Positions 44,636 to 59,006 of a stretch of 64,000 nt of DNA are shown piece by piece. The stretch is from an uncultured Planctomycetota bacterium. Its GTDB lineage: Bacteria; Planctomycetota; PUPC01. The position numbers and the translations under genes were made by a program. Numbering within the stretch: the first letter of the stretch is position 1; each line of letters starts with the position of its first letter. The notes beneath the pieces were generated by a model. It was given only the letters and a program-made list of their open reading frames with translations, ran no database searches and had not been told where the DNA came from. Location of the stretch: positions 29,397-93,396 of the forward strand of contig CAYLQD010000004.1 in assembly GCA_964385685.1 (NCBI GenBank), written 5' to 3'.

Positions 44636-45994
44636 GTGTCCGCTCAGGAGCGTGATGTGGCTCGGAAGCCGAAACGTGGTTCCGGCCTGGCCGTGCTCGT
44701 GCTCGATGACGAGGACGGCATCCGGACGATGTGCCGCGAATACCTCGACTCCGTCGGCTGCGAGGTCGAGGAGGCCGCGACGATTGCGGCTGCTCGGGCG
44801 GCGCTCGAGAGCCACACGTTCGGCCTCGCGATCTTCGACGTGCGCCTGCCCGACGGCTCGGGGCTCGACCTGTTCCGCTCGGTGCGCGAGAGCCGGCCCG
44901 ACTTGCCCATCGCCATCATCACGGGCCACGCCTCGGTCGAAGACGCCATCGACGCGGTCAAGGCCGGCGCGCTCGACTACATCACGAAGCCCTTCGACCT
45001 CGACCGCCTGAAGGAGGTCGTCGCGCTCGCGGCCGCCCAGATGCCGGCCGACGCCGCCGACCGCCGCAGCGGCACGTTCGATTTCCACGGCATCGTCGGC
45101 GCGTCGACGCCGATGCGATCCGTCTGCCAGCTCATCGAGCGCGCCGCGCAGACGCCGTCGACCGTGCTGATCCAGGGCGAGAGCGGGACCGGCAAGGAAC
45201 TGGTCGCCAAGGCCATCCACCTGGCCGGACCGAACACGCGCGAGCCCTTCGTGCCCGTCGACTGCAGCTCGATGCCCGAGGGCTTGATCGAGAGCGAGCT
45301 GTTCGGGCACGTGAAAGGAGCGTTCACCGGCGCCCACGTCGACAAGGTCGGGCTGTTTCCGTCGGCCGGCAAGGGCACGGTGTTTCTCGATGAGATCGGC
45401 GAGCTGCCCCAGCCGCTGCAAGCGAAACTCCTGAGGGCGCTCCAGGAACGCGAGGTCCGGCCCGTCGGCTCGACCGACACCACCCCGTTCCACGCGCGCG
45501 TGATCGTCGCAACCAATCGCGACCTGCGGTCCGCGATGGCCGACGGCGAGTTCCGCCGCGACCTCTTCTACCGGCTGCACGTCATCCCCGTCTACCTGCC
45601 GCCGCTGCGGTCTCGCCGCGCCGACATCGCGCCGCTCGCCGCGCACTTCCTCGAGGAACTCAATGCCGCCGCGGGCCGCACGTGCACGCTCGCGCGCGGC
45701 GCGCTCGACGTGCTCGAGCGCCGCAACTGGGCGGGCAACGTCCGCGAGCTTCAAAACGCCATCGAACGCGCGTTCGCGCTCGCGACCGGGGACATGATCG
45801 GCCCGGAAGAGTTCGGGGAGCCCGAGCAGAAACCGGAGCCGCCACGTCAGGGCGACCGGCTCGAGGACTACGAGCGGCAGGCCATCCAGACCGCGTTGGA
45901 GAAGGCCGGGGGCAATCGGGAGAAGGCGGCCGAGATCCTCAAGATCGGCGTCGCCACCCTCTTCCGCAAGCTGAAGAAATACGATCTGAAGTAG
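44636..45994 (+). CDS. sigma-54-dependent response regulator (NtrC family)
   Basis: Receiver (VLVLDDEDG…D…K), GESGTGKE, GAFTGA, C-terminal Fis-type HTH. Start GTG 44636 or GTG ~44660 (AGGAG upstream). Confidence 0.9.
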   Translation: MSAQERDVARKPKRGSGLAVLVLDDEDGIRTMCREYLDSVGCEVEEAATIAAARAALESHTFGLAIFDVRLPDGSGLDLFRSVRESRPDLPIAIITGHASVEDAIDAVKAGALDYITKPFDLDRLKEVVALAAAQMPADAADRRSGTFDFHGIVGASTPMRSVCQLIERAAQTPSTVLIQGESGTGKELVAKAIHLAGPNTREPFVPVDCSSMPEGLIESELFGHVKGAFTGAHVDKVGLFPSAGKGTVFLDEIGELPQPLQAKLLRALQEREVRPVGSTDTTPFHARVIVATNRDLRSAMADGEFRRDLFYRLHVIPVYLPPLRSRRADIAPLAAHFLEELNAAAGRTCTLARGALDVLERRNWAGNVRELQNAIERAFALATGDMIGPEEFGEPEQKPEPPRQGDRLEDYERQAIQTALEKAGGNREKAAEILKIGVATLFRKLKKYDLK

Positions 45995-46037
45995 CCGCCG
46001 TCGGGAACTGAATCGCCGTGGGGAAGTGGGAGCAGGT

Positions 46038-47444
46038 ATGCGGACGGGAATGAAGGCGTCGATCATCCCGTTGGTGCTGGCCGCCGTGACCGTGGCCGGT
46101 TGTCGGTCGGCGCCGACGCCAGAGACACCCGCCTGGCGGACACAGATCGAGGCGGCTCTCGACAGCCCCATGACCTTCGATTTCGTCACTACCCCGTTGG
46201 ATGATTGTGTCGCGTTTTTCAGGTCGAGGTTGCGCGTGAATATCGTGGCGGACAAGGAGGAGCTATTCGACCGCGACGACATCGACGTCACGCTCAAGGT
46301 CGCCAAGACACCGTTCCGAGACGCGCTTCAGCAGATCTGCGATAAGCTCGGGCTTGTCTACACAATCGAGCACGGGGCTATCTTCATCACGACACAAGAA
46401 GCTCTCGCCACGCGCCGGCCGCCGGGTACCCCGGCCGACGGCTGGCCCCGGACGATGCTCGAGCTGCGGCACGGTACGTCCGCCGAGAGGCGCCTTGCCG
46501 CCGCGCTTGATCAACCCGTTTCCTTTGAGTTCGTGACTGAACCGTTCGTCGGCGTAATCGGCGGAATCTGCCAAGCCACGAGGATCAAGTGCACCCTCGA
46601 CGGCGAGGCGGTGGTCTCCTCGCAGGGCGCTCGGCTGACGGCAACGGCCAAGAACATGAAGCTGAAGAGCTCACTGGAGTTCGTGTGCGATCACTTCGGT
46701 CTCGACTTCACCGTTCGCGGCGCAGCAATCTACATCGCCGACCGTGAAAGGGTCGCCGACGAGAACCGCGTGAACAAGCGCGTGTACGAGGAGCGCGCGC
46801 GGACGCGCCGCCGCGCGGCCGACGCGCTGCGCGACCCGGAAGCCGAGCGGTACATCGCTGTTCGACTGAGCGAACTTGTATCTTTTGACTTCGTCGTGAC
46901 GCCACTCGAGGACGTGGTCGGGTTCCTGAGCGGCCTCAAGAAGGTCAACATGGTGATCGACGAGAGGGGCATGAAGGAGCGCGAGCACCTCGACGTGACC
47001 CTGCGCCTGAAGGAGGTCCGCCTCGAGGACGCCCTGCACTGGATCACCGTCTTGCTCGACCTCCACCATGTTGTCCGCGATGGCGCCATCTTCATATCGA
47101 CAAGGGAGGGCATCCGTGCTCGCGACTTCACGACGATGACCCGCTACGACCGGAGGGAGTGGCGGCGAACGAAGGGGGCGATGAAGAAACGCATCTCTGT
47201 TCGCTTCGTCGGGACATCGCTCAGGGACGTCGCCAAGGCGGTGAGCGATCAAGCGGGCGTTCCGGTGCGTATTGGCCCGGAACTCCCGAAGGACCATCTG
47301 CCAGACATCACGCTCCGTCTCGAAAACGTCAAGGTAGCATCGTTTCTCGCGCACATGTGCTATCTACACGACCTCGCCTACACGGTCCGCGACGGGGTGG
47401 TGATCATCACCAGTCGCGACCGGCTGCTGGAGCCGGAGGAATAG
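46038..47444 (+). CDS. lipoprotein with four tandem secretin-N/STN-like domains
   Basis: Lipobox LAAVTVAGC. The module …SFDFVxTPLxDVVxFLxxxxxVNIVxD…DVTLxLxxVxLxDALxxI…LxYxVxxGAIxIxT is repeated four times. Confidence 0.55.
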   Translation: MRTGMKASIIPLVLAAVTVAGCRSAPTPETPAWRTQIEAALDSPMTFDFVTTPLDDCVAFFRSRLRVNIVADKEELFDRDDIDVTLKVAKTPFRDALQQICDKLGLVYTIEHGAIFITTQEALATRRPPGTPADGWPRTMLELRHGTSAERRLAAALDQPVSFEFVTEPFVGVIGGICQATRIKCTLDGEAVVSSQGARLTATAKNMKLKSSLEFVCDHFGLDFTVRGAAIYIADRERVADENRVNKRVYEERARTRRRAADALRDPEAERYIAVRLSELVSFDFVVTPLEDVVGFLSGLKKVNMVIDERGMKEREHLDVTLRLKEVRLEDALHWITVLLDLHHVVRDGAIFISTREGIRARDFTTMTRYDRREWRRTKGAMKKRISVRFVGTSLRDVAKAVSDQAGVPVRIGPELPKDHLPDITLRLENVKVASFLAHMCYLHDLAYTVRDGVVIITSRDRLLEPEE

Positions 47445-47460
47445 CTGCGGGCCGCCGGCC

Positions 47461-48267
47461 CTACGCGACGCTCTGGCCGTCGATGGTGCCGGCGTGGATC
47501 TCGATCTGGTCGCGATCCTTGATGCTCGCGATCTGCCCGTCCGTCAGGTAGACGACCCGGTCGGACGCGGCGAGCATCTTGTGGTCGTGGGTCGCGCTCA
47601 TGATCGTGACGTGAAAGTCCTCCTTGAGCCCCTCGAGCATGTCGATGATCTCCTCGCCGGTGTGCAGGTCGAGATTGCCCGTCGGCTCGTCGGCGAGGAC
47701 GATGGCGGGATCGTTGGCGAGCGCCCGGGCGACGGCGACCCGCTGCTGCTGCCCGCCGGACAACTCGGACGGCTTGTGGAACCGTCGATCACCCAGGCCG
47801 ACCCGGTCGAGCAGGTCGGCGGCCTTGTCCTGGGCGTCCGCCTGCGACAGCCCGGCGAACAGCATCGGGAACATCACGTTCTCCAGCGCCGTCGCGACCG
47901 TGATCAGGTTGAACGTCTGGAAGATGTAGCCGATCTTGTGGCAGCGGAGCCACGCCAGCTCGAACGTGTCGAGCGCGGCGATGTCGACCTCGTCGATGTA
48001 GACGTGTCCCTCGTCGGGCTTGTCGAGCCCGCCGATCATGTTGAAGAGCGTCGTCTTGCCCGAGCCGCTCGGGCCCATGATCGAGACGTACTCGCCGCGC
48101 TTGACGCTCAGGTCGACGCCTCGGAGCGCGTGCACCTCTTCCTCGCCGACCTGGAAGACGCGCCGGACGCCGACGGAGCGGATCACGTGCACCGCGAGCA
48201 GTCCGCTCTTCTCAAGGGCCTGCTCGTCCGGCAGCGCGGCGTTCGCGTTGTCTGTCGCGTCCGTCAT
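47461..48267 (-). CDS. ABC transporter ATP-binding protein (MacB/LolD/FtsE-like, type VII ABC)
   Basis: Maximal ORF to 48873 has a non-coding-looking Arg/Gly-rich extension. ATG 48267 gives MTDATDNA… with Walker A GPSGSGKTT, LSGGQQQR and ADEPTGNLD. Confidence 0.85.
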   Translation of the reverse strand: MTDATDNANAALPDEQALEKSGLLAVHVIRSVGVRRVFQVGEEEVHALRGVDLSVKRGEYVSIMGPSGSGKTTLFNMIGGLDKPDEGHVYIDEVDIAALDTFELAWLRCHKIGYIFQTFNLITVATALENVMFPMLFAGLSQADAQDKAADLLDRVGLGDRRFHKPSELSGGQQQRVAVARALANDPAIVLADEPTGNLDLHTGEEIIDMLEGLKEDFHVTIMSATHDHKMLAASDRVVYLTDGQIASIKDRDQIEIHAGTIDGQSVA

Positions 48268-48269
48268 AC

Positions 48270-49016
48270 TCACACTTCCGACCGCATCGCGTCGACCGGC
48301 TGCATGCGGGCCGCGCGCCACGCGGGATAGAGCGCCCCGACGACCGTCAGGGCGGTGCCCGTGAGCAGGCAGATGCCGACCCACTTGAGCATCTCGAGCG
48401 CGGGCAGGACGTCGCGGCCCAGAACCGACGGACCGAAGACGACCGTGGCCTCGGCCAGGGCCAGCACGACGCCGATCACAATGCCGATCGCCGTGCCCAC
48501 AATTCCCTGAAACGTGCTCTCCAACAGAAACAACTCGACGATGAGGCCATCGAGCGCGCCGAGACACTTCATCGTGCCGATTTCCTGGAATCGCTCCGTG
48601 ACACTCAGCAGCATCGCGTTCAGAATCCCGACGAAGCTGACCAGGAGCGCGAGCCCGACGAGCCACCGGGTCTGCGACTTCGCCGTCTCGTCGCTCACGC
48701 GCGACAGCGCCCCCTCGTTTTCCAGCCGCTGCTTGATCTTGGGCGGACCATTCTCGACGAAGCTCCGCGTCAGGCTGTCGGAGCAGAGGATGTACGTCAG
48801 GAACGCGAGGGCGAGGATGATGCCGCTCGTGACGAGCAGCGACCGGACCAGGCGAACGCGGATGTTCCTCCATGCGATCTCGAGGGCCTTCCGGAGCGGC
48901 AGTTGGACCTGCTGCTCGATTGTGCCGTGCAGCGACGGCCGGCGGCCCGATGTCGCGTCCTCGTTCTGGCTCGTCAAATTACTTCCCGCCCTTCTGCGGC
49001 TCCCGGTCGACGGCAA
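48270..49016 (-). CDS. FtsX-family ABC permease (short, 4-TM type)
   Basis: N-terminal LRKALEIAWRNIRVRLVRSLLVTSGIILALAF (FtsX TM1 signature), then a periplasmic segment and three C-terminal TMs. ATG 49016 overlaps the upstream gene by 38 nt; an internal GTG at ~48908 is an alternative start. Confidence 0.65.
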   Translation of the reverse strand: MPSTGSRRRAGSNLTSQNEDATSGRRPSLHGTIEQQVQLPLRKALEIAWRNIRVRLVRSLLVTSGIILALAFLTYILCSDSLTRSFVENGPPKIKQRLENEGALSRVSDETAKSQTRWLVGLALLVSFVGILNAMLLSVTERFQEIGTMKCLGALDGLIVELFLLESTFQGIVGTAIGIVIGVVLALAEATVVFGPSVLGRDVLPALEMLKWVGICLLTGTALTVVGALYPAWRAARMQPVDAMRSEV

Positions 49017-49365
49017 CCACGACCAGACCCTTCGAGACGAGCGTCCTCAAATACTGCGTCACCGATATCTCCGCCTCCGCAACGCTGATCTCATGCTTCT
49101 TCGCGAACTGCCGCACCATCGACCGCGTGGTCGTCTTGCCGTCGCACGCATCGTAGACTTCCGCGCCGAGCTTGTCGAGCCGGAACGAGCGGCGGACGGT
49201 CTTCGATCCGGCCAGCCAGCCCAGCCATTTTCGCGGCTCGAGTTCGATGACGATCGTCACGCCGCCGTCGTCGCTCTCCTCGCGGCCGACGGCCGGCGCG
49301 TGCTCGGGCCGGGCCCTGAGCGCCCGGTCGCGGTCGAACGCCGGTTTCGGCTTCGAGAAAGCCAT
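48979..49365 (-). CDS. PqqD-like protein (RiPP precursor-recognition element / peptide chaperone family)
   Basis: From ATG 49365: …SFRLDKLGAEVYDACDGKTTTRSMVRQFAKKHEISVAEAEISVTQYLRTLVSKGLVVV matches the PqqD winged-helix pattern (…G…W.L.DG.…T..EI…L…Y.V……D…FL..L…GL). Confidence 0.6.
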   Translation of the reverse strand: MAFSKPKPAFDRDRALRARPEHAPAVGREESDDGGVTIVIELEPRKWLGWLAGSKTVRRSFRLDKLGAEVYDACDGKTTTRSMVRQFAKKHEISVAEAEISVTQYLRTLVSKGLVVVAVDREPQKGGK

Positions 49366-50300
49366 CACGCTCCTGCGCCCTCGCCCAAGAGCGCCCAGTT
49401 CATTCGCCCGATTGCCGCGGCCAGCATCGATTCGTCGGGCCGGCCCGGCGCATCGTGTTCCGCCAGCAGCAGGCGGTCGAGTTCCGTGTCGACGACGGCG
49501 ACGGACAGGACCTCTCGCGGCGAGCAGGACCCGAGCGGGAACGCGAGCCGCTTTCGCCCGGGCTGCCGCGTGCCCTCGAGCGTGCGCCCGAACGATTCCG
49601 CGCTCCACGGCCCGCCCTTGCCGGCGTCTTTGTATCTCCGGTGCTCCTTGAACGGCCACGTGCGCATCCAACGCTCGACCGGCCGCCGCGCGAGCGCCGT
49701 CTCCGCAGGGTAGACTTGCCTCAGCCAGAGGCAAGAGCCGTCGCCGCCGCGGAATCGCAGCGCCAGGTCGCCCAGCACGAGCTTGTGGTCGAGCGGACGA
49801 CAGCCCGCGGGCGACTCGAAGCTCGCCCCGAACACGGACCAGGCGATTGCCCTGCCCGTCTCCGAGACGACAAGCGAGGGCAGGACTTCCGCGGCCACGG
49901 TCCGTCGCGTCCGTTTCGCCGCGTCGAGGTTGACGGTCACCTCGATCACGAGCCCGGCCGCGGGCGCGTAGCCGTGCCAGAGCCGCAGCGGCGTCCGGCC
50001 GCTGCCGCTCTCGTCGCGCACCCAGGCCGTCTCGGAGAACCCACCGGGCCCCGGTGCGCCGGGCCCGGCGTCACGAGCTTTCAATGAGCGGAGCCGCCGC
50101 CGTATCCAGCGCCCGGCGTCGAATCGCTCTTTGCCCGGGCGCCACCACCGGATCTGAAACGCCGGCTCGTCGCCGCTGCCAAGAATCATGTTTCCCTGTC
50201 GCCAGCGGCCACTGATGCGCAGTGGGCGCCAGTCGGATGGGACACGTACCTGCCAGCCCATCCACGCCACACAAGTTGCACCCGTCCGCCCGCTGTCCAT
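49365..50300 (-). CDS. hypothetical protein (unknown function, Trp/Arg-rich)
   Basis: Maximal ORF to 50705 overlaps the 3' end of the upstream transporter gene; ATG 50300 is the first start beyond it. Its stop overlaps the PqqD-like ATG. No recognisable motifs. Weak call. Confidence 0.35.
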   Translation of the reverse strand: MDSGRTGATCVAWMGWQVRVPSDWRPLRISGRWRQGNMILGSGDEPAFQIRWWRPGKERFDAGRWIRRRLRSLKARDAGPGAPGPGGFSETAWVRDESGSGRTPLRLWHGYAPAAGLVIEVTVNLDAAKRTRRTVAAEVLPSLVVSETGRAIAWSVFGASFESPAGCRPLDHKLVLGDLALRFRGGDGSCLWLRQVYPAETALARRPVERWMRTWPFKEHRRYKDAGKGGPWSAESFGRTLEGTRQPGRKRLAFPLGSCSPREVLSVAVVDTELDRLLLAEHDAPGRPDESMLAAAIGRMNWALLGEGAGA

Positions 50301-50341
50301 CACCGTACTGTGCCTATCCCTCCTTTGCGGTCGGCGCACGA

Positions 50342-52339
50342 TCAGACCGGCAGCTTGATGACGCTCTTGGCCATGAGCACAATGCCCATGCTGAACATGG
50401 CGATCAATCCCACCCCCGCGCCGAAGCCCGCCGTGAATACGATGCGGTAGCGCGGCCAGTTGTCGCCGAACCGCTTTCGGAAGACAAACCGCCCCATGAC
50501 GGCGCCGAGCACGAGCGGAATCGTCGACGACGGATCCGTCTGGTTCAGCCCGTAGACGACCCCGTAGACGAGGAAGATGGGCAGGCCGAATCGGTCGAGC
50601 ACGAAATACACGGAGAGCGCCAGGCCGAGCGCGGCGGCGATGACCTCGGGCCGGAATGCCTCGCGGAACGGGCTGGCCGACTCGCCCGGCAGCGTCGCCG
50701 ACCACATCAGGCCCTCCCGATACGCTTGCAGTTCCCAGAATTCGTTGGCGTACGGAAACAGTTCACTCGGCACGGGCCCGATAGACCAGATGAACTGGCT
50801 GAACAGGATCGTTCCGACGAACATCACCGGGAAGATGATCAACTCGGCCTTGATGAGCGACGTGAACCTCGTGCCGGTCAGTTCGGTTTGCCGGAACATG
50901 ACGACCTGGTTGGCGTAGGCGTGCAGCGGAATGGGCGCGAACCAGATGGCGGCGCCCTTGTAACCCGAGAGAACGAAGGTCGCCTCGCGCACGTACGGAA
51001 TCGCCGCCTGCTGCCCGACGATCCCCTCGAGCCGCGCCGACACATAGCTCATCACGGGCGTGTAGACGAAGCCGTAGAAGATGAGGATCCACAGCGGGAA
51101 GCTCCCGCCGCGCAGCGGACCCGAGGCGTGGTTGACCAGCCAATACGACAGCACAACATATGACGTCGTGGAGAAGAAATAGATCCCGATGCTGATCCAG
51201 ATCGGAATATCGCCGCGGGTCGTCGGCGGCTTGAACAGATTCTTCCACGTCACCTCCGACGTCGACAGTTCCTTCATCGCGCCGGCCTTCTTTCGGAAGG
51301 AACTGAAGACGTGGATGAAGCCGATGATGGCGACGGCGAGCGACAGCCCGATGGTGAAGCTGAAATAGAAGTCCATCGTGTTCGACTGGATCGTCTGGAT
51401 TGCGCCGATCCCCTCGCGCCAACTGTCGAGCACGCCCGTGTGGTGCAGGATGGGGTTGGCGATCATCGTGACGATCAGCCCGACGAGGGTTCCCATGACG
51501 GCCCAGAACGGCATGACCATCCCCGTCATGAAGAGCCCGAGGTTGAAGCTGATCATGACGGGCATCGCGGGCAGTAACTTCTCGGTGAACGACGTGAGAT
51601 CGACGAAGGGGAGCGGGAGGATCTGGATGCCTTCGGTGAAGACCGCAGCGGTGATGTTCGGAATGGCGAGGTAGACGGCGCCGAAGACGATCCCCGTCAT
51701 GGCGCCGAGCGCGAACGTCCGCCAGCGCCACGTCTCCTTCTGGCTCGATGCGTCGGCCAGCGCCGTGATGCCCATCGCGCCGACGGGGGCCATCGGGAAC
51801 GGCAGCCGCTCCACGTCGGACGTCAGCCGGAACATCAGGTAGCCCAGGCCGAACCGGTCGATGCGCGTGATGAGCCACGTCAGCAGCATGAGGCCGAGCG
51901 GCATCAGCCACGGCCCTACGAGAAAACTCCGCTGGTTCAGCACGTTCTCGTCCGTCGGCGCGTACCACGCCGGGATGTAGTCGGTCAGCCCGATCTTCCG
52001 GATCTCTTCGCTCTGCGCGAGGAACTGCCGCCAGAGAAGTCCCTGGCCCGCCGTCACCATCACCGCGCTGCACATGTACCAGAGGACGAAGATCTCGGGC
52101 CGCCGGAGCCGCTTGAACGCGCGGCGGGAGATCTCGACATAGAGGATCACGGTCACCCAGTTCGCCGCCCCGCCGGTCCCGGCGTTCCCCGCGACGAGCC
52201 CCACGTACAACTGCGACGGGGCCATCACGAGCCCGACGAACAGGGCCATGAAGACGGCACCCCACCCGAACCCGCTCTCGAACCGCTCGGGCGGCCTCAT
52301 CAGGTCCCGGAATTCCTGGAGTTCCCTGTCCTCACGCAT
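50342..52339 (-). CDS. polytopic membrane transporter (~16 TM; possibly OPT-superfamily oligopeptide transporter)
   Basis: 665 aa, highly hydrophobic throughout. Length and topology resemble OPT-family transporters. No diagnostic motif could be verified by eye. Confidence 0.5.
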   Translation of the reverse strand: MREDRELQEFRDLMRPPERFESGFGWGAVFMALFVGLVMAPSQLYVGLVAGNAGTGGAANWVTVILYVEISRRAFKRLRRPEIFVLWYMCSAVMVTAGQGLLWRQFLAQSEEIRKIGLTDYIPAWYAPTDENVLNQRSFLVGPWLMPLGLMLLTWLITRIDRFGLGYLMFRLTSDVERLPFPMAPVGAMGITALADASSQKETWRWRTFALGAMTGIVFGAVYLAIPNITAAVFTEGIQILPLPFVDLTSFTEKLLPAMPVMISFNLGLFMTGMVMPFWAVMGTLVGLIVTMIANPILHHTGVLDSWREGIGAIQTIQSNTMDFYFSFTIGLSLAVAIIGFIHVFSSFRKKAGAMKELSTSEVTWKNLFKPPTTRGDIPIWISIGIYFFSTTSYVVLSYWLVNHASGPLRGGSFPLWILIFYGFVYTPVMSYVSARLEGIVGQQAAIPYVREATFVLSGYKGAAIWFAPIPLHAYANQVVMFRQTELTGTRFTSLIKAELIIFPVMFVGTILFSQFIWSIGPVPSELFPYANEFWELQAYREGLMWSATLPGESASPFREAFRPEVIAAALGLALSVYFVLDRFGLPIFLVYGVVYGLNQTDPSSTIPLVLGAVMGRFVFRKRFGDNWPRYRIVFTAGFGAGVGLIAMFSMGIVLMAKSVIKLPV

Positions 52340-52354
52340 GGCTTTGCCTGTCCC

Positions 52355-55300
52355 TTATGCCTCGAGCGGCATGCCGCTCTCGGTCGCGCGGGCGATGTAT
52401 TCCAGTACGCGGTCGATCTTGAGCTTTCGCCAGCCGAGCAGTTGCCGGCGCAGGTCGCCCAGCAGCACCCGGTTCAGTTTTCGCCACGTCCGAATCTGGC
52501 CCGAGCGTCGCACCAGTTCGACGTCAATCTCATACACGTCCGGCTCGGTCGCAGACACGTGGACGGTGATCGTGACGTCTTGCCGCACACCGAGGTCGTA
52601 GGGAGCCAGCCAGACCGTGCCGCGCACGATGTGCACCTCGCGTCCGTCGTCGTCGGTGTCGCAGGACTTCTCGAGGTTGTCGGCGCTGAAAACGCCGATG
52701 GTCCCACCCCGGTGCGCGTCCATGTATTCATAGATGAACACGAGGATGCCGCCGGCCGTCCTCGGCGTCGCGGTGAAAGGAAGTCGGTCGCGGATGGTGT
52801 CGCCGTCCGGCAGGGGCACCTTCCAGGTCATCTCGTTGCTCGGGGTGGCCAGCTTGCCCGCGAGAAACGCGGGCACGAGCGACGAGACGATGACGGTCGC
52901 CAGCACGATGAGCATTGTAAAGATGGCCTGGCCGCCGGAGTAGTTGAGCGTCACGCCCGTCATGAGCCCCATGCTGGAGAAGAGCTTGGCGGCGCCCTGC
53001 CCGACGACGTATCCGAAGACGGAGCCCATCAGCCCGTAGGTGAGGGCCTCGGCAAGGAACAGGAAGCCAACGTGGAGCGGGGCCAGCCCCAAGCTCGTGT
53101 AGATGTAAATCTCGCGCTTGCGCTCGGCGATGGAGCTGAGCATCGTGTTGAAGATGATCAGGCCCGCGATGGCGAGCGGGATGACGAGCGCCTTTGGCGG
53201 CTTCGGGATCGGCAGCGTCGACGCCATCACCTTGACCTTGCGCCTAGGGGCGCCGTAGTAGACGGGGAACGCCAGCCGGTCGGCAAGGCGCTCTGCAAGC
53301 TCTTTCGCTTTTTCATACGAGCCAACCGGCACGGTCAGGTGCCGCAAGCTGCCCGCGTAGAGCCCGCGGAGCAGCGAGGCGTGGACGATGACGACCTGGT
53401 CGCCGGGCGCGTGCGGCGAGTCCTCGACGCTCACAAGCGCCGACCCCGACGTCATCTCACGCGTCATCTCGGTCAGGTCCTGCCGCGTGACGCGGGTCCG
53501 TTGCTTGTCATCCAGGATCGTGAAGTCGAACGGCAGGATCGACCGACCGTCGAGACGCTGGACCTGCTGGTCGAAGACCTTCGGCTTGAACGTGCCGAGC
53601 AGTTCGAGCGACCGCCCTGCGATGACGACTCGGCCGCCCGGCTCGACACCCAACCGCTCGGCGGTGTCGGCGGAAAGGTAGCAGCCGTTGCCCGAGTCGA
53701 ACCGCGACCAGTTCGGACAGAACCGGTCTATGCCGGAGCAGTCGGCCTCGCGCCCCACTAGCCCGAGCGCTGCGCTGAGCGATACCTGATCGCCCGTCAC
53801 GGGATTCCGCGCGTGGACGCGCCACTTCGGGTCGTTGCTCACCCACCAGTACCGTGGCACGACGGCGCGCGGCCCCGGCACGATCGTCTCCAGACTCTCG
53901 AGCGCTTCGTCCGGCATGGCGCGCGACGAGGGCTGAGCGACCAGTACGCCCGTGAACGGAGCCGTGGTGTCCAGCTCCATCTCCTTCTTGTCGTCGTACG
54001 TGCTCGTCGACATGTAGCACAGGAGCGCGAACGTGATCAGCACGATCGTGATGCCCGTCAGGGCGGTCCGCAACTTGCGCTTGCGCATGTTGGCGATGCC
54101 GAGCCGAATGGCCGTGTAGGCGAGGCCGATGCGCGACGTGCGGGCGCCGCTCGCCTCGGCGCGCCCGCTCCGGAACTCCTCGAGCAGCCCCTCGAACTTC
54201 GAGAAGATCATCCCCATGACGAGCACGCTCATCCCGAGCGCTGCGAACGCCATGATGACCATCAGCGGCTGGCCGGTGATCCGAAATGCCGGGTGGAAGC
54301 TCCACAGCGCGGCCGCCATCAGGACGAACACCCCGAGGACCGCGCCGATCTGCTTGTAGATGTTCGGTGATGCGAACAGGAGCCGCTCCATGACGAACGC
54401 GAACGGCACGGCCATCAGCAGGAGGAAGATGGCTCCCCTGACGACGTCGTTGGCCGTCTCGCGGATGGCCTTGTAGGCGCGGACCTCGTTTGCGAGCGCG
54501 GCCGTGGCGGCGGCCGTGAACGCGCGGCCGTCGTCGCGGTCTGCAGCCGCGGCCTCGTCGGCGGCGTCGAGTAATCCTTTGGTCTCCGCCTGCATCGCCT
54601 CGATGTGCTCGCTCGCGATCCCGGCACGCTTGTACTTCTCGACGCGCCGGCGGTCGAGGCGGTAGAAGTCGCGGGCGGCCTGAAGCACCGGGCGCTCCGG
54701 CGACCGTTCTTCGGCGCTGAACCCCCGCATGGCCTTGCGCATCGAGAGAGCGGCGGCGCCGGGGTCGTCGGGGTCGACCACGTTCAGCAGCGCCATCCGG
54801 TTCTCGGTGATCCCGTGCCGCAGGAGGAGCTGCCACCGGACGCTCGGCTCGACGAACATGACCATGTGCCCCGTCTGCCGCGTGAAGTTGAGTCGCTGCG
54901 GCTGGCTCCCGCGTCGCGCGTCGTGCACCTTGCCGTCGGGCAGCATCAGGAGGAACCGCGGGTCGAAGAAATCCACGACGGTCACCTCGGTGCAGTCGAA
55001 CATGACGGCCCGGAGTTCGTTGGGGTTGCGGTCGTTGATGTTCACTTGGAGCGATCCGCCGCGCTCGCCCTTGAGGAGATCGGCCCGGCGAACGAGACGT
55101 CCGTCCTCCGCGGCCAGTGACGGCTGGATCGTGTAGTAGTGGCTCCACCCCGACAACGGAATGAGGTCGAAGCGGAAGCGCCCGTCGACGCGCGTGAATG
55201 CGAACTCGAGACGCCGTACGCCGGGCACTGGATCATGCCACGCGACGGTCGATCCAGAGAGCGCCCACCCCGGCACGTAGGCGACGAGGTATCCCTCCAT

Positions 55301-57775
55301 CGGCACGCTCGGGACGGGCTCGCCGGGCGACCGGTCGACGATGACGCCGTGCACCCGCGTCCACTTGACCGGCGACTGCGCAATCGGCACAAACGTTGTG
55401 TCGCCGAGCACGGTCGTCAGGAGGAAGAACGTGGCGTCGATCTGCGGCGCGAGCCGCCGCCAGTCGAGCCGCTCGGCGAGATCGTTCGGCGTGTCGACGT
55501 AGAGCCGCTCGGCGTCGAGGGTGTTCCACGCCATGCCGGCCGTGGCGAAGCTCGCCGCGGGCGCCGAGATGTTCGCCACGCGGCCCACGACCTCCGACCA
55601 CGGCGACTCCGTGCCTTCATGTGCGTTCAGGCTGACAGCCGGCCGCAACGTCTCGGGCCAGAACTTCCCGTCCGCCTGCGCGTCCTTCATCTGGAGCCAG
55701 TTCGTGAGCGAGCCGGCGTCGCGCCTCCCGTCCCACTGCATGAAGCTCCCGACGAGACAGGGGCCGGCGACAACGCCTGCATCGGACAGGTCAAGCCCGA
55801 GGAGGAATCCAAGCGGGCGGTCGAGCCGATCCGTCAGGCCGAGCAGGTCGAGCATCTCACGGCGGCGGGCCTCCCGCTGACGGTATTGCGCGACAACATG
55901 CCCGGTGGCAGCGAGTTGCCTTCGGATGCGACTCCGCGCCAACTGCCACAACTCGTCCGCGATACGGCTGGACGCGATCGCATTGAAGTCCTCGTCGGTG
56001 AACTTGCTCCCGTCGGCGAGGAGGGTGGAGTCGACCGTCTTGCACGCCTCGACCAACGCTCGCGCAACATCCGCGGCCGGGCGGGTCCCGTCGGCAAGCT
56101 CTAACGATCCCGGCGGCCGCTGCCCACCGGCGAGGGCCGCGATGTCGACCGGTGTCAGCTTGCCGCCGCCAGCGAGGGTGATCGATGCCAGGAGAGAGCG
56201 GGCGCGCTTCATCGACCGGAAGTCCGCCTCCGTCATCGCCCGTCCGCCGGCGAGCTTGAACGAGTCGATGTCCTTCAGCGGCGCGTCGGTGTGGAGGCGG
56301 CGCTGGGCGCCATAGTAGTGGATGCGCTCCGTGTCGAGCCGTGTGGCCTCGTCCTGAAGCGCGTATGTCCGAAGCGACAGCTCCCGAACCTCTCGCTTCT
56401 TCTCGGCGATCAGTGTCGCCGATCCCCCGGTTGATGTTTCCTCGAGCGACTCGATCTCGGCCTCGAGAGCGGTTCGCTCGCCCCGTAGGCGCGACAGCTC
56501 GGTTCGCTTCGGATACAGGATCGTCTCGATGGCGACGACGCGGCGGGCGACCTCATCCTTGAGGTAGCGGCGCAGGTCGCGATACCTCGACTCGTGCAGC
56601 CGGCCCATCGCGTCACGGCGGGCGAGCATCCTTGCCTCTTCCGTCGCCGCGCTGCCGGACTTCCCGACCCGGCTCGCCAGAGCGCTCTCGTATTCGGTGT
56701 CGATCTCCTGGGCCAGCAGCTCATGCGCCCCGTAATCCTCGGCCACATCGAAATCGTCCGAGAGGTGCGCCTCGTAGTCCTTGGGGACCGTCGCGAACGC
56801 TCCAAGCATCTCGCGGACGCCGCGCTGGCCGAGCCCATACGCATCGGTGAACGCAACCAGCAGCGGCCGCTTGGGCGGATGGCGGGTCGTGTGGCGGAGG
56901 AGAGTGAGCCCGAACGCCACGTCGATGGCGGCGTCGGCGCCGGGAGCAAGCCCCGGCACCAGGCTCATCGAGTCGTAGTGCACTCCGACGACGAACGCTT
57001 GGCGATTCTGCGGGCGCCTCGCCGGTTCCGCGGGCAGCACGAGAGCGTAGATGTTCCGAGCCGTCTTCCGCTCCCAGCGGGCGCGGCACACCACCGTTCC
57101 GTTGTGCAGCTCGCCGGCCCGGAGCGCCCTGGCAAGTTTTCCGTCGGGCACGTAGAACCGCGGGATGTTGATCGGAATGCTGAGCAGGTGGGAGCGGAGG
57201 TCGCGGTACGTCACGTCCGGCGAGCCGAGCACGATGATCGCGCGGGCGCCGGCGTTGTACGCGTTCATCCAGCGTTTCCCGCCCGTGGCTTCCATCACGG
57301 CGATCTGCCCGCTGACGCCGCTCGCCGGCAAGTGGCCCGGCGCTCGGCCCGGCCTTCCCTCGCCGATGTAGACCAGTCGCCCGCTGATGCCGCCGGACGG
57401 CGTCGTGACCAGCCGTGAACCCGACGGCCAGAAGGGATAGACGGGGTGCTCTCCCGAGCCGGGTGCCGTCAGCGTGGCCTCAAGAACTTCGGGAAGAACG
57501 ACGGAGAATTCGTGGGTGCGAACGATGACGCCGGGGATCGCTTTGATCCGTTCGAGCAGCGCGGCGCCGGCCGCATCGTGCGACTCCGTGCCGACAACAC
57601 GCGTCGGAAAGCTCGCGAGCCACTCGGTGTCACGGCGTACCGACGCCACCAGGTCGGATGCGTCCGGTTCGGCCGCAACGGCCGCGCCGGCGGCCAGAAG
57701 GAACGCGGTGAGCCCGGCGCAGAGGCGAGCCAGCATAATCCCGTCCCGGTGCTTGCCAGGGGAATCGGCAGCCAC
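52355..57775 (-). CDS. giant secreted/membrane fusion protein: signal peptide + PA/degenerate M28-peptidase-like ectodomain + coiled coil + unknown domains + MacB/FtsX-type permease module
   Basis: 1806 aa. Signal MLARLCAGLTAFLLAAGAAVAA. M28-like segment NIYALVLP…AFVVGVHYDSMS…GADAAIDVA…LLVAFTDAYGLG with metal ligands altered (HYDS for HxD, DA for EE). FtsX TM1 signature RIGLAYTAIRLGIANMRKRKLRTALTGITIVLITFALL, a ~370-aa periplasmic domain, then an FtsX C-terminal 3-TM bundle (…LSSIAERKREIYIYTSLGL…). Confidence 0.7.
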   Translation of the reverse strand: MAADSPGKHRDGIMLARLCAGLTAFLLAAGAAVAAEPDASDLVASVRRDTEWLASFPTRVVGTESHDAAGAALLERIKAIPGVIVRTHEFSVVLPEVLEATLTAPGSGEHPVYPFWPSGSRLVTTPSGGISGRLVYIGEGRPGRAPGHLPASGVSGQIAVMEATGGKRWMNAYNAGARAIIVLGSPDVTYRDLRSHLLSIPINIPRFYVPDGKLARALRAGELHNGTVVCRARWERKTARNIYALVLPAEPARRPQNRQAFVVGVHYDSMSLVPGLAPGADAAIDVAFGLTLLRHTTRHPPKRPLLVAFTDAYGLGQRGVREMLGAFATVPKDYEAHLSDDFDVAEDYGAHELLAQEIDTEYESALASRVGKSGSAATEEARMLARRDAMGRLHESRYRDLRRYLKDEVARRVVAIETILYPKRTELSRLRGERTALEAEIESLEETSTGGSATLIAEKKREVRELSLRTYALQDEATRLDTERIHYYGAQRRLHTDAPLKDIDSFKLAGGRAMTEADFRSMKRARSLLASITLAGGGKLTPVDIAALAGGQRPPGSLELADGTRPAADVARALVEACKTVDSTLLADGSKFTDEDFNAIASSRIADELWQLARSRIRRQLAATGHVVAQYRQREARRREMLDLLGLTDRLDRPLGFLLGLDLSDAGVVAGPCLVGSFMQWDGRRDAGSLTNWLQMKDAQADGKFWPETLRPAVSLNAHEGTESPWSEVVGRVANISAPAASFATAGMAWNTLDAERLYVDTPNDLAERLDWRRLAPQIDATFFLLTTVLGDTTFVPIAQSPVKWTRVHGVIVDRSPGEPVPSVPMEGYLVAYVPGWALSGSTVAWHDPVPGVRRLEFAFTRVDGRFRFDLIPLSGWSHYYTIQPSLAAEDGRLVRRADLLKGERGGSLQVNINDRNPNELRAVMFDCTEVTVVDFFDPRFLLMLPDGKVHDARRGSQPQRLNFTRQTGHMVMFVEPSVRWQLLLRHGITENRMALLNVVDPDDPGAAALSMRKAMRGFSAEERSPERPVLQAARDFYRLDRRRVEKYKRAGIASEHIEAMQAETKGLLDAADEAAAADRDDGRAFTAAATAALANEVRAYKAIRETANDVVRGAIFLLLMAVPFAFVMERLLFASPNIYKQIGAVLGVFVLMAAALWSFHPAFRITGQPLMVIMAFAALGMSVLVMGMIFSKFEGLLEEFRSGRAEASGARTSRIGLAYTAIRLGIANMRKRKLRTALTGITIVLITFALLCYMSTSTYDDKKEMELDTTAPFTGVLVAQPSSRAMPDEALESLETIVPGPRAVVPRYWWVSNDPKWRVHARNPVTGDQVSLSAALGLVGREADCSGIDRFCPNWSRFDSGNGCYLSADTAERLGVEPGGRVVIAGRSLELLGTFKPKVFDQQVQRLDGRSILPFDFTILDDKQRTRVTRQDLTEMTREMTSGSALVSVEDSPHAPGDQVVIVHASLLRGLYAGSLRHLTVPVGSYEKAKELAERLADRLAFPVYYGAPRRKVKVMASTLPIPKPPKALVIPLAIAGLIIFNTMLSSIAERKREIYIYTSLGLAPLHVGFLFLAEALTYGLMGSVFGYVVGQGAAKLFSSMGLMTGVTLNYSGGQAIFTMLIVLATVIVSSLVPAFLAGKLATPSNEMTWKVPLPDGDTIRDRLPFTATPRTAGGILVFIYEYMDAHRGGTIGVFSADNLEKSCDTDDDGREVHIVRGTVWLAPYDLGVRQDVTITVHVSATEPDVYEIDVELVRRSGQIRTWRKLNRVLLGDLRRQLLGWRKLKIDRVLEYIARATESGMPLEA

Positions 57776-57884
57776 TTCGCGCCACGAGGCGCTCCGCCAT
57801 TCCCCCGGTCCTGCCGGGGAACGGGCGGTGGAGGGTTTATATCAGCCCCCAACGGCCAAGTCAAGATGAGGCGAGGCCGCGCGG

Positions 57885-58901
57885 TTACAGCGCACGCACC
57901 GGCACCCGGCGCCCCTTCTTCGAGCTTTCGATCACGGCGAAGACCATCGCGAGCGACTTGATGTTGTCGTGGCACTCGCACTGCGATGCGCGGCCGGTCC
58001 GCAGGAACCGCAGCATCTCGCGCAGCCCGCCGTGCATGGCGCCGTGCTTTATCGACGCCTTCGGCACGCTGACGTCCTTGAGCGGCCGGCAGAACCCGTC
58101 CTTCTTCGCGATGGCTTGGCCGTGCGGATCGCCGTCTCGCTCGTAGAGCAGCGTCCCCTTGTCGCCGATGAGACGCCAGTCGCCGTTCCAGCTCGTGTGA
58201 CATCCCTCGCTGCACCAGCTCCCGCGGTAGGTGAAGACGACACCGTTCGTCATCTCGAAGATGCAGCTCGCCGACACGTCGCCCTTGTACCACGAGCCCT
58301 TCGGGTTGAACTCTTTCGCGTAGACGGCGACCGGGTCTTCGCCGCTCAGGAACCGGGCGAGGTCGAAATGGTGAATGGCCATGTCGAGAATGAGGGGGCT
58401 GGGCATCAGGTCGCGGAACCCGCCGAAGTGCGCCCCGACGTAGAAGTCGCAGTTGAGCGTCGTCAGCGTGCCGACCTTGCCGCCTGCAACCGCGCGGCGG
58501 ACGCGCTCATGCTTCGCGTCCCACCGCCGCGACTGGCTCACCATGTACATCTTGCCCGTCTGCTCCGACGTGCGGACCATCCGGCGCGCCTCGGCCATGC
58601 TGTTCGCCATCGGCTTCTCGCCGACGACGTGGCACCCGGCCCGGAGCGCCGTGCACGTGACGCCGCAGTGCGCCTCGGGCACGGTCAGGTCTGCGACGAA
58701 GTCGGGCTTCGTCTTCTTGAGGGTCGCCTTGAGATCCTTCGACGCTTTGCAGGCGAGTTCGTAGCGCTCGATCGCATCGGCGGCCCGCTTCACGTCGAGA
58801 TCCACGACGCCGACGACTTCAACCTTTTCTTGCTTCAGCGGCGGGAACCACGCGTTCGAAATCCCGCCGGCCCCGACCACAACGGCTCGTATCTTGGCCA
58901 T
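57885..58901 (-). CDS. Gfo/Idh/MocA-family NAD(P)-dependent oxidoreductase
   Basis: MAKIRAVVVGAGGIS Rossmann N-terminus. EKPMA motif. GGAGTG Shine-Dalgarno before ATG 58901; maximal ORF extends to 58955. Confidence 0.85.
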   Translation of the reverse strand: MAKIRAVVVGAGGISNAWFPPLKQEKVEVVGVVDLDVKRAADAIERYELACKASKDLKATLKKTKPDFVADLTVPEAHCGVTCTALRAGCHVVGEKPMANSMAEARRMVRTSEQTGKMYMVSQSRRWDAKHERVRRAVAGGKVGTLTTLNCDFYVGAHFGGFRDLMPSPLILDMAIHHFDLARFLSGEDPVAVYAKEFNPKGSWYKGDVSASCIFEMTNGVVFTYRGSWCSEGCHTSWNGDWRLIGDKGTLLYERDGDPHGQAIAKKDGFCRPLKDVSVPKASIKHGAMHGGLREMLRFLRTGRASQCECHDNIKSLAMVFAVIESSKKGRRVPVRAL

Positions 58902-59006
58902 TCTTCTCACTCCGTCAGTCAGGCAACTCTTGATGCAGTTCCCCGCGGCAGCCATTCGCCGCGATTTGGCGCGAGATGATAGCGAATACAGACGGCGCCC
59001 GCAACA

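Follow-up and report, generated by a model that had tools for sequence, protein, structure and literature searches.

An FtsX-type permease with a giant peptidase-like ectodomain and its conserved gene cassette in Planctomycetota and other bacteria

What might a bacterial FtsX-type permease do with an ectodomain of more than one thousand residues? The question is raised by an open reading frame (ORF) of 1806 codons (52355-57775, minus strand) in a stretch of 64,000 nucleotides from an uncultured Planctomycetota bacterium (contig CAYLQD010000004.1, positions 29,397 to 93,396), hereafter called the window. A preliminary description, made from the sequence alone, had read the product of this ORF, here referred to as the giant, as a chimera of a secreted PA/M28-like domain, a coiled coil and a MacB-type FtsX permease module. 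Our analysis suggests that the giant probably forms the large permease subunit in a dedicated type VII (MacB/FtsX-fold) ATP-binding cassette (ABC) mechanotransmitter which works together with an OPT-like permease encoded next to it. To our knowledge only few type VII ABC systems are understood, namely MacAB, LolCDE, FtsEX, BceAB, HrtBA and YbbAP, and each of them runs a distinct process of the cell envelope.

Architecture of the giant protein

The giant is the product of a single real gene. The G+C content at third codon positions (GC3) amounts to about 0.8-0.96 in one frame along the entire ORF and is lower in the remaining two frames, and because it is high in one frame from end to end the ORF contains no hidden frameshift. 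An identical protein (P0001) is present in the public protein collection, where it has 1793 residues, begins at M14 (ATG 57736) and is found on five contigs, with listed placements in two European Nucleotide Archive samples and one Joint Genome Institute sample. In addition, collinear full-length homologues with identities from 66% down to about 29% exist in many phyla, and a family alignment of 117 sequences shows an occupancy near 1.0 throughout except for residues ~330-650. The suspicion of a fusion artefact, i.e. two genes joined by a frameshift or by a chimeric contig during assembly or annotation, is therefore rejected: nothing was found in its favour, the reading frame, the database protein and the homologues all oppose it, and we attach practically no probability to it.

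Hydropathy reveals a signal-like segment at residues 14-37, at the probable true start, for which a signal peptidase cleavage between AVA and AEP is predicted. No further hydrophobic helix follows before residue 1113, where three transmembrane (TM) helices begin that precede TM1 (1237-1258) and TM2 to TM4 (within 1529-1641) of the FtsX module, so that hydropathy and AlphaFold2 (AF2) both give a topology of one signal peptide and seven TM helices. As the N-terminal region is extracytoplasmic and is followed by three leading helices, the N-terminus of the FtsX module comes to lie in the cytoplasm, as the fold requires. The AF2 model of the ectodomain (residues 36-1112), built on a family alignment of 67 sequences, reached a predicted local distance difference test (pLDDT) score of 94.1 and a predicted template modelling score of 0.91. 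It shows in succession a PA/M28 alpha/beta domain, long helices, the resumed M28 fold, a beta-rich domain and a three-helix stalk. In the membrane model (residues 1095-1806; pLDDT 83.8) the three extra helices are followed by an elbow helix and by the FtsX unit of four helices, which includes the periplasmic core domain and, as a short helix behind TM2, the coupling helix; a C-terminal alpha/beta domain ends the chain. The outline given in the preliminary description is correct, although four corrections are needed. The helical region, which had been placed as a linker after the M28 domain, is instead an insertion of ~315 residues within the M28 fold, which resumes at ~646-795. The periplasmic core domain measures ~270 (1260-1528) and not ~370 residues according to hydropathy and AF2. 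Three extra TM helices (1113-1192) had been overlooked, as had a cytoplasmic domain at the C-terminus (1646-1806).

Profiles and models make the homology in fold of the giant head with peptidase family M28 a firm one. Single sequences are not sufficient to recognize it: the Pfam scores of the giant lie under threshold for both M28 (16.8 vs 21.3 bits) and PA (14.3 vs 23.9 bits), PDB searches with the giant or the homologue P0119 matched the FtsX part only, and the detection of M28 in PDB needed a spliced family profile of the head domain. This profile matched the Aneurinibacillus AM-1 aminopeptidase 2EK8 (E=1.7e-23), followed by BSAP (1e-14), nicalin (1e-9), nicastrin (3e-4) and the transferrin receptor (0.013). 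Foldseek with the head model likewise gave 2EK8 (1.4e-14), then BSAP, PaAP, transferrin receptor and GCPII, the last two at ~1e-10. Profile and fold alignments to the PA-containing aminopeptidases span ~300 residues and include the PA insert. The likeness to the transferrin receptor that had been proposed is supported, since this receptor, nicalin and nicastrin, all of them non-catalytic, are among the profile and fold relatives of the head.

For the metal site, the head family was aligned to 2EK8 by hidden Markov model (HMM) and read against the numbering of the Vibrio aminopeptidase (AAP), the ligands of which we take to be His97, Asp99, Asp117, Glu151-Glu152, Asp179 and His256. In detail, His97 corresponds to H266, a position occupied by Pro (50), Gln (11), Ala (9) or His (4) in the close clade (n=82) and by His, Tyr or Phe in the distant clade. 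Asp99 corresponds to D268 (Asp in 114 and Glu in 3 of the 117 sequences), Asp117 to D281 (Asp in the family, or Glu in the distant clade) and Asp179 to the conserved D662. The Glu151-Glu152 pair falls on Y313-G314 and is never Glu-Glu in the family; column 313, that of the general-base Glu, contains Tyr, Asp, Phe or Gln in the close clade and an invariant His in the distant clade. His256 is equivalent to A740, never His in the family, by a hand alignment anchored on a weak second HMM stretch at the 'HT..DT' motif. A complete set of the five co-catalytic zinc ligands is found in none of the 117 homologues, since catalytic Glu, ligand Glu and terminal His are missing from every one of them, and thus no canonical di-zinc site exists, in agreement with the non-catalytic M28-like domain originally suggested.

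An active canonical M28 aminopeptidase is rejected for the head because of G314 and A740 at ligand positions and Y313 in place of the general-base Glu. The giant and its three nearest relatives do retain H266, D281 and D662, presumably the Zn2 triad of the Vibrio enzyme, which may constitute a relic single-metal site; most close relatives, however, have Pro, Gln or Ala at position 266, which is thus unconstrained in the clade. The earlier statement that the metal ligands are replaced therefore applies to the two glutamates and the last His, whereas three of the five ligands are kept. The motifs HYDS and GAD, which had been cited as lost ligands, still contain H266, D268 and D281, and the Glu-Glu pair, formerly placed at D311-A312, lies two residues further downstream. 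From these substitutions the head would appear to act as a binding module.

The insertion within the M28 fold consists in the AF2 model of four helices (40, 72, 43 and 51 residues) that are interrupted by a small tip of variable sequence, and the family occupancy is low across residues 351-600. A crude test for heptad periodicity detected one weak segment (453-483; 4.7 vs a shuffle maximum of 3.9 +/- 0.7), which is not significant. Of the former coiled-coil claim the long helices stand while the coiled-coil character is unproven, and because of the weak heptad score we use the term long helical arm. The tip (residues ~505-605; 55961-56263, minus strand) comprises four or five LAGG/LADG-type repeats of ~13-26 residues each with the form h-L-A-(G/D)-G-x-x-(M/L)-T-x-x-D, and is present only in the closest relatives (family occupancy <0.2). 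Peptidoglycan-binding LysM inserts are located inside the PA/M28 head of a Poribacteria orthologue (locus L068; 2,442 aa) and of an unplaced homologue (P0101; 2,326 aa).

The beta-rich domain has no Pfam or PDB sequence match, and the stalk and the extra TM helices match nothing known. The extra helices are as conserved as those of the FtsX module and exhibit invariant MER and HPAF motifs. As a whole, the region of residues 1112-1195 carries the invariant polar motifs M-E-R-L-L-F and F-H-P-A-F in or near the membrane, and such motifs could form a docking or coupling site. In the FtsX module the sole Pfam family that passes in the giant is FtsX itself (51.7 vs a cut-off of 25.5 bits, 1.1e-13, residues 1531-1641); homologues of the giant show weak MacB_PCD matches. 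PDB sequence searches with this module retrieved YtrF, MacB, LolC and LolF, and Foldseek with the membrane model retrieved LolC/LolE, the pneumococcal Spr0694-0695 (5XU1), MacB, HrtB, YtrF, BceB and FtsX with E values of 1e-9 to 1e-3. TM2 is followed by the coupling helix (ERKREI), whose residues E, R, E and I show little or no variation across the family. By the features tested the giant is a type VII ABC permease, as it combines the FtsX score, four TM helices, a domain between TM1 and TM2, a coupling helix and a cognate ATPase. Orthology to the cell division protein FtsX is rejected (NCBIfam FtsX 14.3 bits vs a cut-off of 225), as is orthology to LolC/LolE (NCBIfam lolCE 13.9 bits vs 362). 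For the C-terminal domain Foldseek gave only weak START/SRPBCC-like matches (E ~0.04), which are not relied on.

A conserved cassette headed by the giant

Downstream of the giant, the same strand of the window encodes, in this order, the OPT-like permease, an orphan protein designated U300, a PqqD-like protein, a short FtsX-type permease and an ABC ATPase (Table 1). The genes overlap or are separated by gaps of <=15 bp, with one exception of ~150 bp; 15 bp lie between the giant and the OPT-like gene. The stop of U300 overlaps the start of the PqqD-like gene (TGATG), and the two appear to be translationally coupled. In the ATPase, Walker A, Q-loop, signature, Walker B and H-loop are all intact, and the best NCBIfam matches are LolD, MacB and FtsE. 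The short FtsX has only ~33 residues between TM1 and TM2, i.e. it is devoid of a periplasmic domain, and possesses the E, R, E and I of the coupling helix; its score of 70.6 bits does not reach the NCBIfam lolCE cut-off of 362. U300 has 141 database matches at E<=0.001, all of about 270-390 aa, and provided no Pfam, PDB or fused-domain clue and no detectable enzyme family. The OPT-like protein has more than 3,000 homologues, some of which are named 'OPT/YSL family transporter' or 'peptide transporter' by NCBI, and at a Pfam OPT cut-off of 25.8 bits the window protein scores 16.1 and the homologue P0125 19.6 (model positions 121-620 of 623). Its family is remotely homologous to DUF6785 (hhalign probability 92%, E 6e-7), with the motif ERLPFP common to both. 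Many cassettes (e.g. L004, L006, L007, L009 and L011) carry OPT-like and DUF6785/DUF6784 proteins together; the window carries only the OPT-like protein and no DUF6785 gene.

Synteny was counted in 42 loci with full 10-kb flanks and at a required query cover of at least 50%, so that the numbers are undercounts. An OPT-like permease lies beside the giant in 40 of the 42 loci, and the cassette contains the ATPase in 31, the PqqD-like protein in 27, U300 in 17, and the short FtsX and a DUF6785/DUF6784 protein in 16 each. The gene order of the window recurs in Phycisphaerae, Sumerlaeota, Lentisphaerota, Verrucomicrobiota, Armatimonadota, Nitrospirota and Desantisbacteria, and a Desulfobacterales locus contains all components in a different order. 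Between the window and this locus the ATPases are 66% identical and the giants only ~29%, a pattern expected of a dedicated motor. Because the order recurs from Planctomycetota to Armatimonadota and the components reappear in Desulfobacterales, the short FtsX and the ATPase, which had been put forward as partners of the giant, are very probably just that. In the loci read, none of the genes called within 10 kb is recorded with a Pfam family of the membrane-fusion (HlyD) type, and in the absence of such an adjacent adaptor a MacAB-TolC-type pump is rejected. No conserved hydrolase gene was seen near the cassette in the loci read either.

Relatives of the giant were detected in at least 597 genomes when one genome per species was scanned. 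Their hosts include Planctomycetota (Phycisphaerae, Brocadiia and Tepidisphaerales), Sumerlaeota, Lentisphaerota and Verrucomicrobiota, and furthermore Desulfobacterales, Nitrospirota, Latescibacterota, Armatimonadota, Omnitrophota, Desantisbacteria and Poribacteria. With few exceptions the genomes are metagenome-assembled, Fontivita pretiosa being the one named and cultured species among the matches listed, where the closest (74% and 66% identity) are both metagenome-assembled Planctomycetota, in line with the planctomycetal origin of the window. An exhaustive search with the ectodomain against 1.84 billion cluster representatives (50% identity) matched 948 clusters at E<=1e-10, of which 170 reach E<=1e-30. 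As almost all full-length matches have 1,450-1,780 aa, the head is nearly always fused to the permease. The fusion, which had been called unusual, is so in comparison with the type VII architectures in a published survey (PMC5985334, section 17), yet it is common in nature.

In the Poribacteria locus L068 (5081-12406) the order is giant, OPT-like permease, a 365-aa protein, PqqD-like protein and ATPase, without a short FtsX. In the Kiritimatiellota locus L006 (20291-24968) the first set is followed after 5 kb by a paralogous second one, which comprises a 334-aa protein, a DUF6785 protein and, running past the end of the fetched locus, a 1,219-aa M28-like protein.

Table 1. Features of the giant gene and of the cassette genes in the window (residue numbers refer to the 1806-aa reading frame)
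Feature	Coordinates	Strand	Basis or remark
Promoter-like site TTGACT, 17 nt, TATAAA	57836..57864	-	pattern match only, by direct sequence reading
Probable true start ATG M14 and Sec-type signal peptide (residues 14-35)	57671..57736	-	P0001 start, hydrophobic stretch 14-37
N-terminal half of M28-like fold with embedded PA-like domain (36-330; H266, D268, D281, Y313-G314)	56786..57670	-	family profile, AF2, Foldseek
Long alpha-helical arm inserted in M28 fold (~331-645)	55841..56785	-	AF2 helices of 40-72 residues
C-terminal half of M28-like fold (646-795; D662, A740, R..DTP.D motif)	55391..55840	-	profile, columns, AF2
Beta-rich domain (~796-1000)	54776..55390	-	AF2 strands pLDDT >85, family occupancy ~1.0
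Three-helix stalk into membrane (~1001-1111)	54443..54775	-	AF2; conserved
Three extra TM helices before FtsX module (1113-1133, 1141-1162, 1168-1192)	54191..54442	-	hydropathy, AF2
Cytoplasmic linker and elbow helix (1196-1233)	54077..54190	-	AF2 helix 1215-1232, low-confidence loop before
MacB/FtsX-type module: TM1, periplasmic core domain, TM2, coupling helix ERKREI, TM3, TM4 (1234-1645)	52841..54076	-	Pfam, PDB, Foldseek
C-terminal cytoplasmic alpha/beta domain (1646-1806)	52358..52840	-	AF2; conserved in family
OPT-superfamily-like polytopic membrane protein (665 aa)	50342..52339	-	adjoins giant
U300, orphan ~300-aa cytoplasmic protein	49365..50189, start perhaps 50228	-	homologue alignment for start
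PqqD-like small cytoplasmic protein (128 aa)	48979..49365	-	Pfam PqqD 2.9e-8; NCBIfam matches under cut-off
Short FtsX-type permease (235 aa), 4 TM, coupling motif ERFQEIG	48270..48977	-	
LolD/MacB/FtsE-class ABC ATPase (268 aa)	47461..48267	-	

The promoter-like site in Table 1 is a near-consensus sigma-70-like promoter in the gap of 109 bp between a GFO/IDH/MocA oxidoreductase gene and the giant gene, and an automated scan had passed over it because its -10 hexamer is without the terminal T. Otherwise the promoter and terminator scan provided nothing useful, and an Rfam search of 46000-59000 gave no matches. Long antisense ORFs of 278-399 aa overlap the operon within 47494-49713 on the plus strand (e.g. 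48514-49713); these are by-products of the G+C content of 66%, as the GC3 coding frame is on the minus strand throughout. Convergent to the operon end, the plus strand (44636-47444) encodes a sigma-54 activator (452 aa) and a 472-aa FecR_C/STN-like repeat protein; a sigma-54 activator adjoins the cassette in the related contig L008 as well.

Proposed mechanism and alternative explanations

The architecture and topology of the giant, the lost catalytic residues, the conserved coupling helix and the synteny described above are the grounds on which the following mechanism is proposed. About 1,075 residues, comprising the dead PA/M28 head, the inserted helical arm, the beta-rich domain and the helical stalk, are exposed outside the cytoplasmic membrane, the three extra TM helices return the chain to the cytoplasm, and the four-TM FtsX module with its core domain of ~270 and a cytoplasmic domain of ~160 residues follow. 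Giant, short FtsX and two copies of the LolD-like ATPase are predicted to assemble into an asymmetric LolCDE-like complex, in which ATP binding and hydrolysis would push the TM1/TM2 stalk together with the coupling helices in the manner of MacB, LolCDE and FtsEX. The motion of this stalk would be transmitted to the periplasmic core domain and might thus move the receptor head. The 665-aa OPT-like permease would be the functional partner of the machine, and in many lineages a DUF6785 paralogue is found beside it. Speculatively, the head may capture a peptide-like ligand, and an ATP-driven step may hand this ligand off to the OPT-like permease or gate the permease, with the cytoplasmic PqqD-like and U300 proteins as putative adaptors. 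A peptide-like ligand is favoured because three components descend from peptide-handling families (M28, OPT and PqqD).

If these steps are taken together, the cassette could be a new class of envelope machine, in which an ABC motor drives a dead-peptidase receptor that captures a peptide-like ligand in the periplasm and loads or gates an OPT/DUF6785 permease resembling a secondary transporter. We regard this extended proposal as tentative and rather doubtful. If true, it would mean a hybrid ABC-energised uptake or recycling system in Planctomycetota, Verrucomicrobiota, Armatimonadota, Poribacteria, Latescibacterota and others, and the ligand captured might possibly be derived from peptidoglycan. 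As far as we know, a type VII ABC motor normally never moves a substrate across the membrane.

Several observations weigh against the dedicated mechanotransmitter and its peptide-like ligand. The short FtsX was not detected in many lineages, e.g. Poribacteria and Latescibacterota, and in several loci no ATPase gene lies within 10 kb, so that the motor assignment holds less generally. From these gene contents the heterodimer may be lineage-specific and the motor may be encoded elsewhere or be absent; lineages without the short FtsX presumably use a homodimer of the giant. The C-terminal cytoplasmic domain of the giant lies where the ATPase would be expected to dock. The OPT assignment is under the Pfam threshold (E 4e-4 to 5e-3) and the OPT-like protein has no relative in PDB. 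Finally, the ancestry of the M28, OPT and PqqD components, the only ground for a peptide-like ligand, is a weak one.

A different reading would be an FtsEX-EnvC analogue in cis, in which peptidoglycan is sensed or bound by the permease-fused arm and dead metallopeptidase, whereupon a separate hydrolase of the cell wall is activated and the OPT-like permease could import the stem peptides released. FtsEX-EnvC and the present system indeed have in common a type VII ABC motor, a degenerate metallopeptidase domain and a long arm of helices, and the LysM inserts of the Poribacteria members would be consistent with a peptidoglycan-related role, be it this one or a recycling of stem peptides. We nevertheless consider it unlikely, as the loci read provide no conserved hydrolase for the cassette, the head is of the M28 and not of the M23/LytM type, the NCBIfam FtsX models reach 14 bits against cut-offs of at least 225, LysM was seen only in one Poribacteria locus and one unplaced homologue, and the heptad test for a classical coiled coil was not significant. 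Another explanation, to which we give an equally small chance, is an extractor or exporter similar to LolCDE, MacB or YbbAP that passes a lipid-anchored or peptide product from the inner membrane to the ectodomain, with the PqqD-like protein binding the leader of a peptide substrate, as in pathways for ribosomally synthesised and post-translationally modified peptides. LolC/LolE and MacB are the closest folds of the membrane module, MacB-type exporters serve peptide products and a darobactin exporter model is among the ATPase matches, the PqqD family consists of peptide chaperones according to NCBIfam descriptions, and the C-terminal domain has matches to a START-like, lipid-binding fold. There is also a precedent in YbbAP-TesA, where a type VII ABC complex holds a periplasmic hydrolase and extracts hydrophobic compounds (PMC12646458). 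Against this, the START-like matches are weak, U300 belongs to no detectable enzyme family, an outer-membrane or adaptor partner is absent, and among the called genes of the loci read no maturase family is on record and no conserved ORF of precursor size is apparent, for which no systematic search was made.

It has finally to be considered whether the head is still an enzyme, namely a membrane-tethered aminopeptidase with a non-canonical single-metal site which feeds amino acids or peptides to the OPT-like transporter. The retention of H266, D281 and D662 in the giant would be consistent with this, as would the distant clade with its invariant His for the catalytic Glu, His/Tyr/Phe, Glu/Asp and mostly Asp at the other three positions. 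As described above, however, H266 is unconstrained, the general-base Glu, the ligand Glu and the last His occur in no homologue, and the Pfam M28 score of the giant is under threshold, which makes this possibility highly improbable.

Significance and comparison with known systems

In the literature we found no published description of the giant family or of DUF6785, and databases name the family 'FtsX-like permease family protein' or 'hypothetical'; the conserved cassette headed by the giant thus seems to be undescribed. The giant provides a signature gene for a widespread uncharacterised envelope cassette in hundreds of mostly uncultured bacterial species, and it comes with a fixed partner set in phyla whose envelopes are poorly understood. 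Its architecture does not appear in the published survey: the N-terminal ectodomain and three additional TM helices come before a single FtsX unit with a cytoplasmic domain behind it, and the probable partner is an FtsX protein that lacks a periplasmic domain. In addition, the giant is a case from bacteria in which an M28/PA peptidase fold serves a membrane complex as its head without catalysis. A model of high confidence and the cultured host Fontivita pretiosa open the question to experiment.

Compared with LolCDE, the cassette likewise encodes two different FtsX-fold permease subunits together with a LolD-class ATPase, and LolC/LolE and LolD are the best Foldseek and NCBIfam matches of the membrane module and of the ATPase, respectively. 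In contrast to LolCDE, a periplasmic core domain is found in just one of the subunits, a LolA-like partner is missing, and the giant adds the ectodomain of ~1,075 aa, three TM helices and the cytoplasmic C-terminal domain. In section 17 of the MacB superfamily survey, MacB and FtsX homodimers, the LolCE heterodimer and the BceB and YbbP fusions are covered (PMC5985334). The four-TM FtsX unit with a periplasmic domain between TM1 and TM2 is common to these architectures and the giant, while a form with an N-terminal ectodomain and three leading TM helices does not appear there.

EnvC, the partner of FtsEX, has a degenerate LytM domain. FtsEX-EnvC and FtsEX-PcsB also combine a type VII ABC motor with an extracytoplasmic arm of long helices and a peptidase-family domain whose catalysis is not required, as described for the EnvC-FtsX complex (PMC7668044). 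In the giant, however, arm and dead peptidase are within the permease polypeptide itself, the fold is M28/PA instead of M23, CHAP or NlpC, and the conserved partners are polytopic permease-like proteins and not hydrolases. YbbAP-TesA is again a type VII ABC complex that carries a periplasmic protein of hydrolase fold (PMC12646458). YbbP differs as a 10-TM fusion of two FtsX units from the giant with its single FtsX unit and three TM helices, and TesA is a separate active lipid hydrolase, whereas the hydrolase-fold domain of the giant is fused and dead.

The closest relatives of the head in sequence and structure are the PA-domain M28 aminopeptidases from Aneurinibacillus AM-1 (2EK8), B. subtilis (BSAP/YwaD) and P. 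aeruginosa (PaAP), in which the PA domain is inserted at the place of the putative PA insert of the head. These enzymes possess the full H-D-E(E)-D-H site, which the giant family never does, and they lack the helical insertion of ~315 aa that the giant has between the Glu-Glu strand and the strand of the fourth ligand. Transferrin receptor, nicalin and nicastrin, with GCPII as an active relative, also reuse the M28/PA fold as a membrane-anchored receptor or scaffold head, although these proteins are eukaryotic, single-pass and unrelated to ABC machinery. Their relation to the head of the giant is one of principle and of shared fold ancestry, not of orthology.

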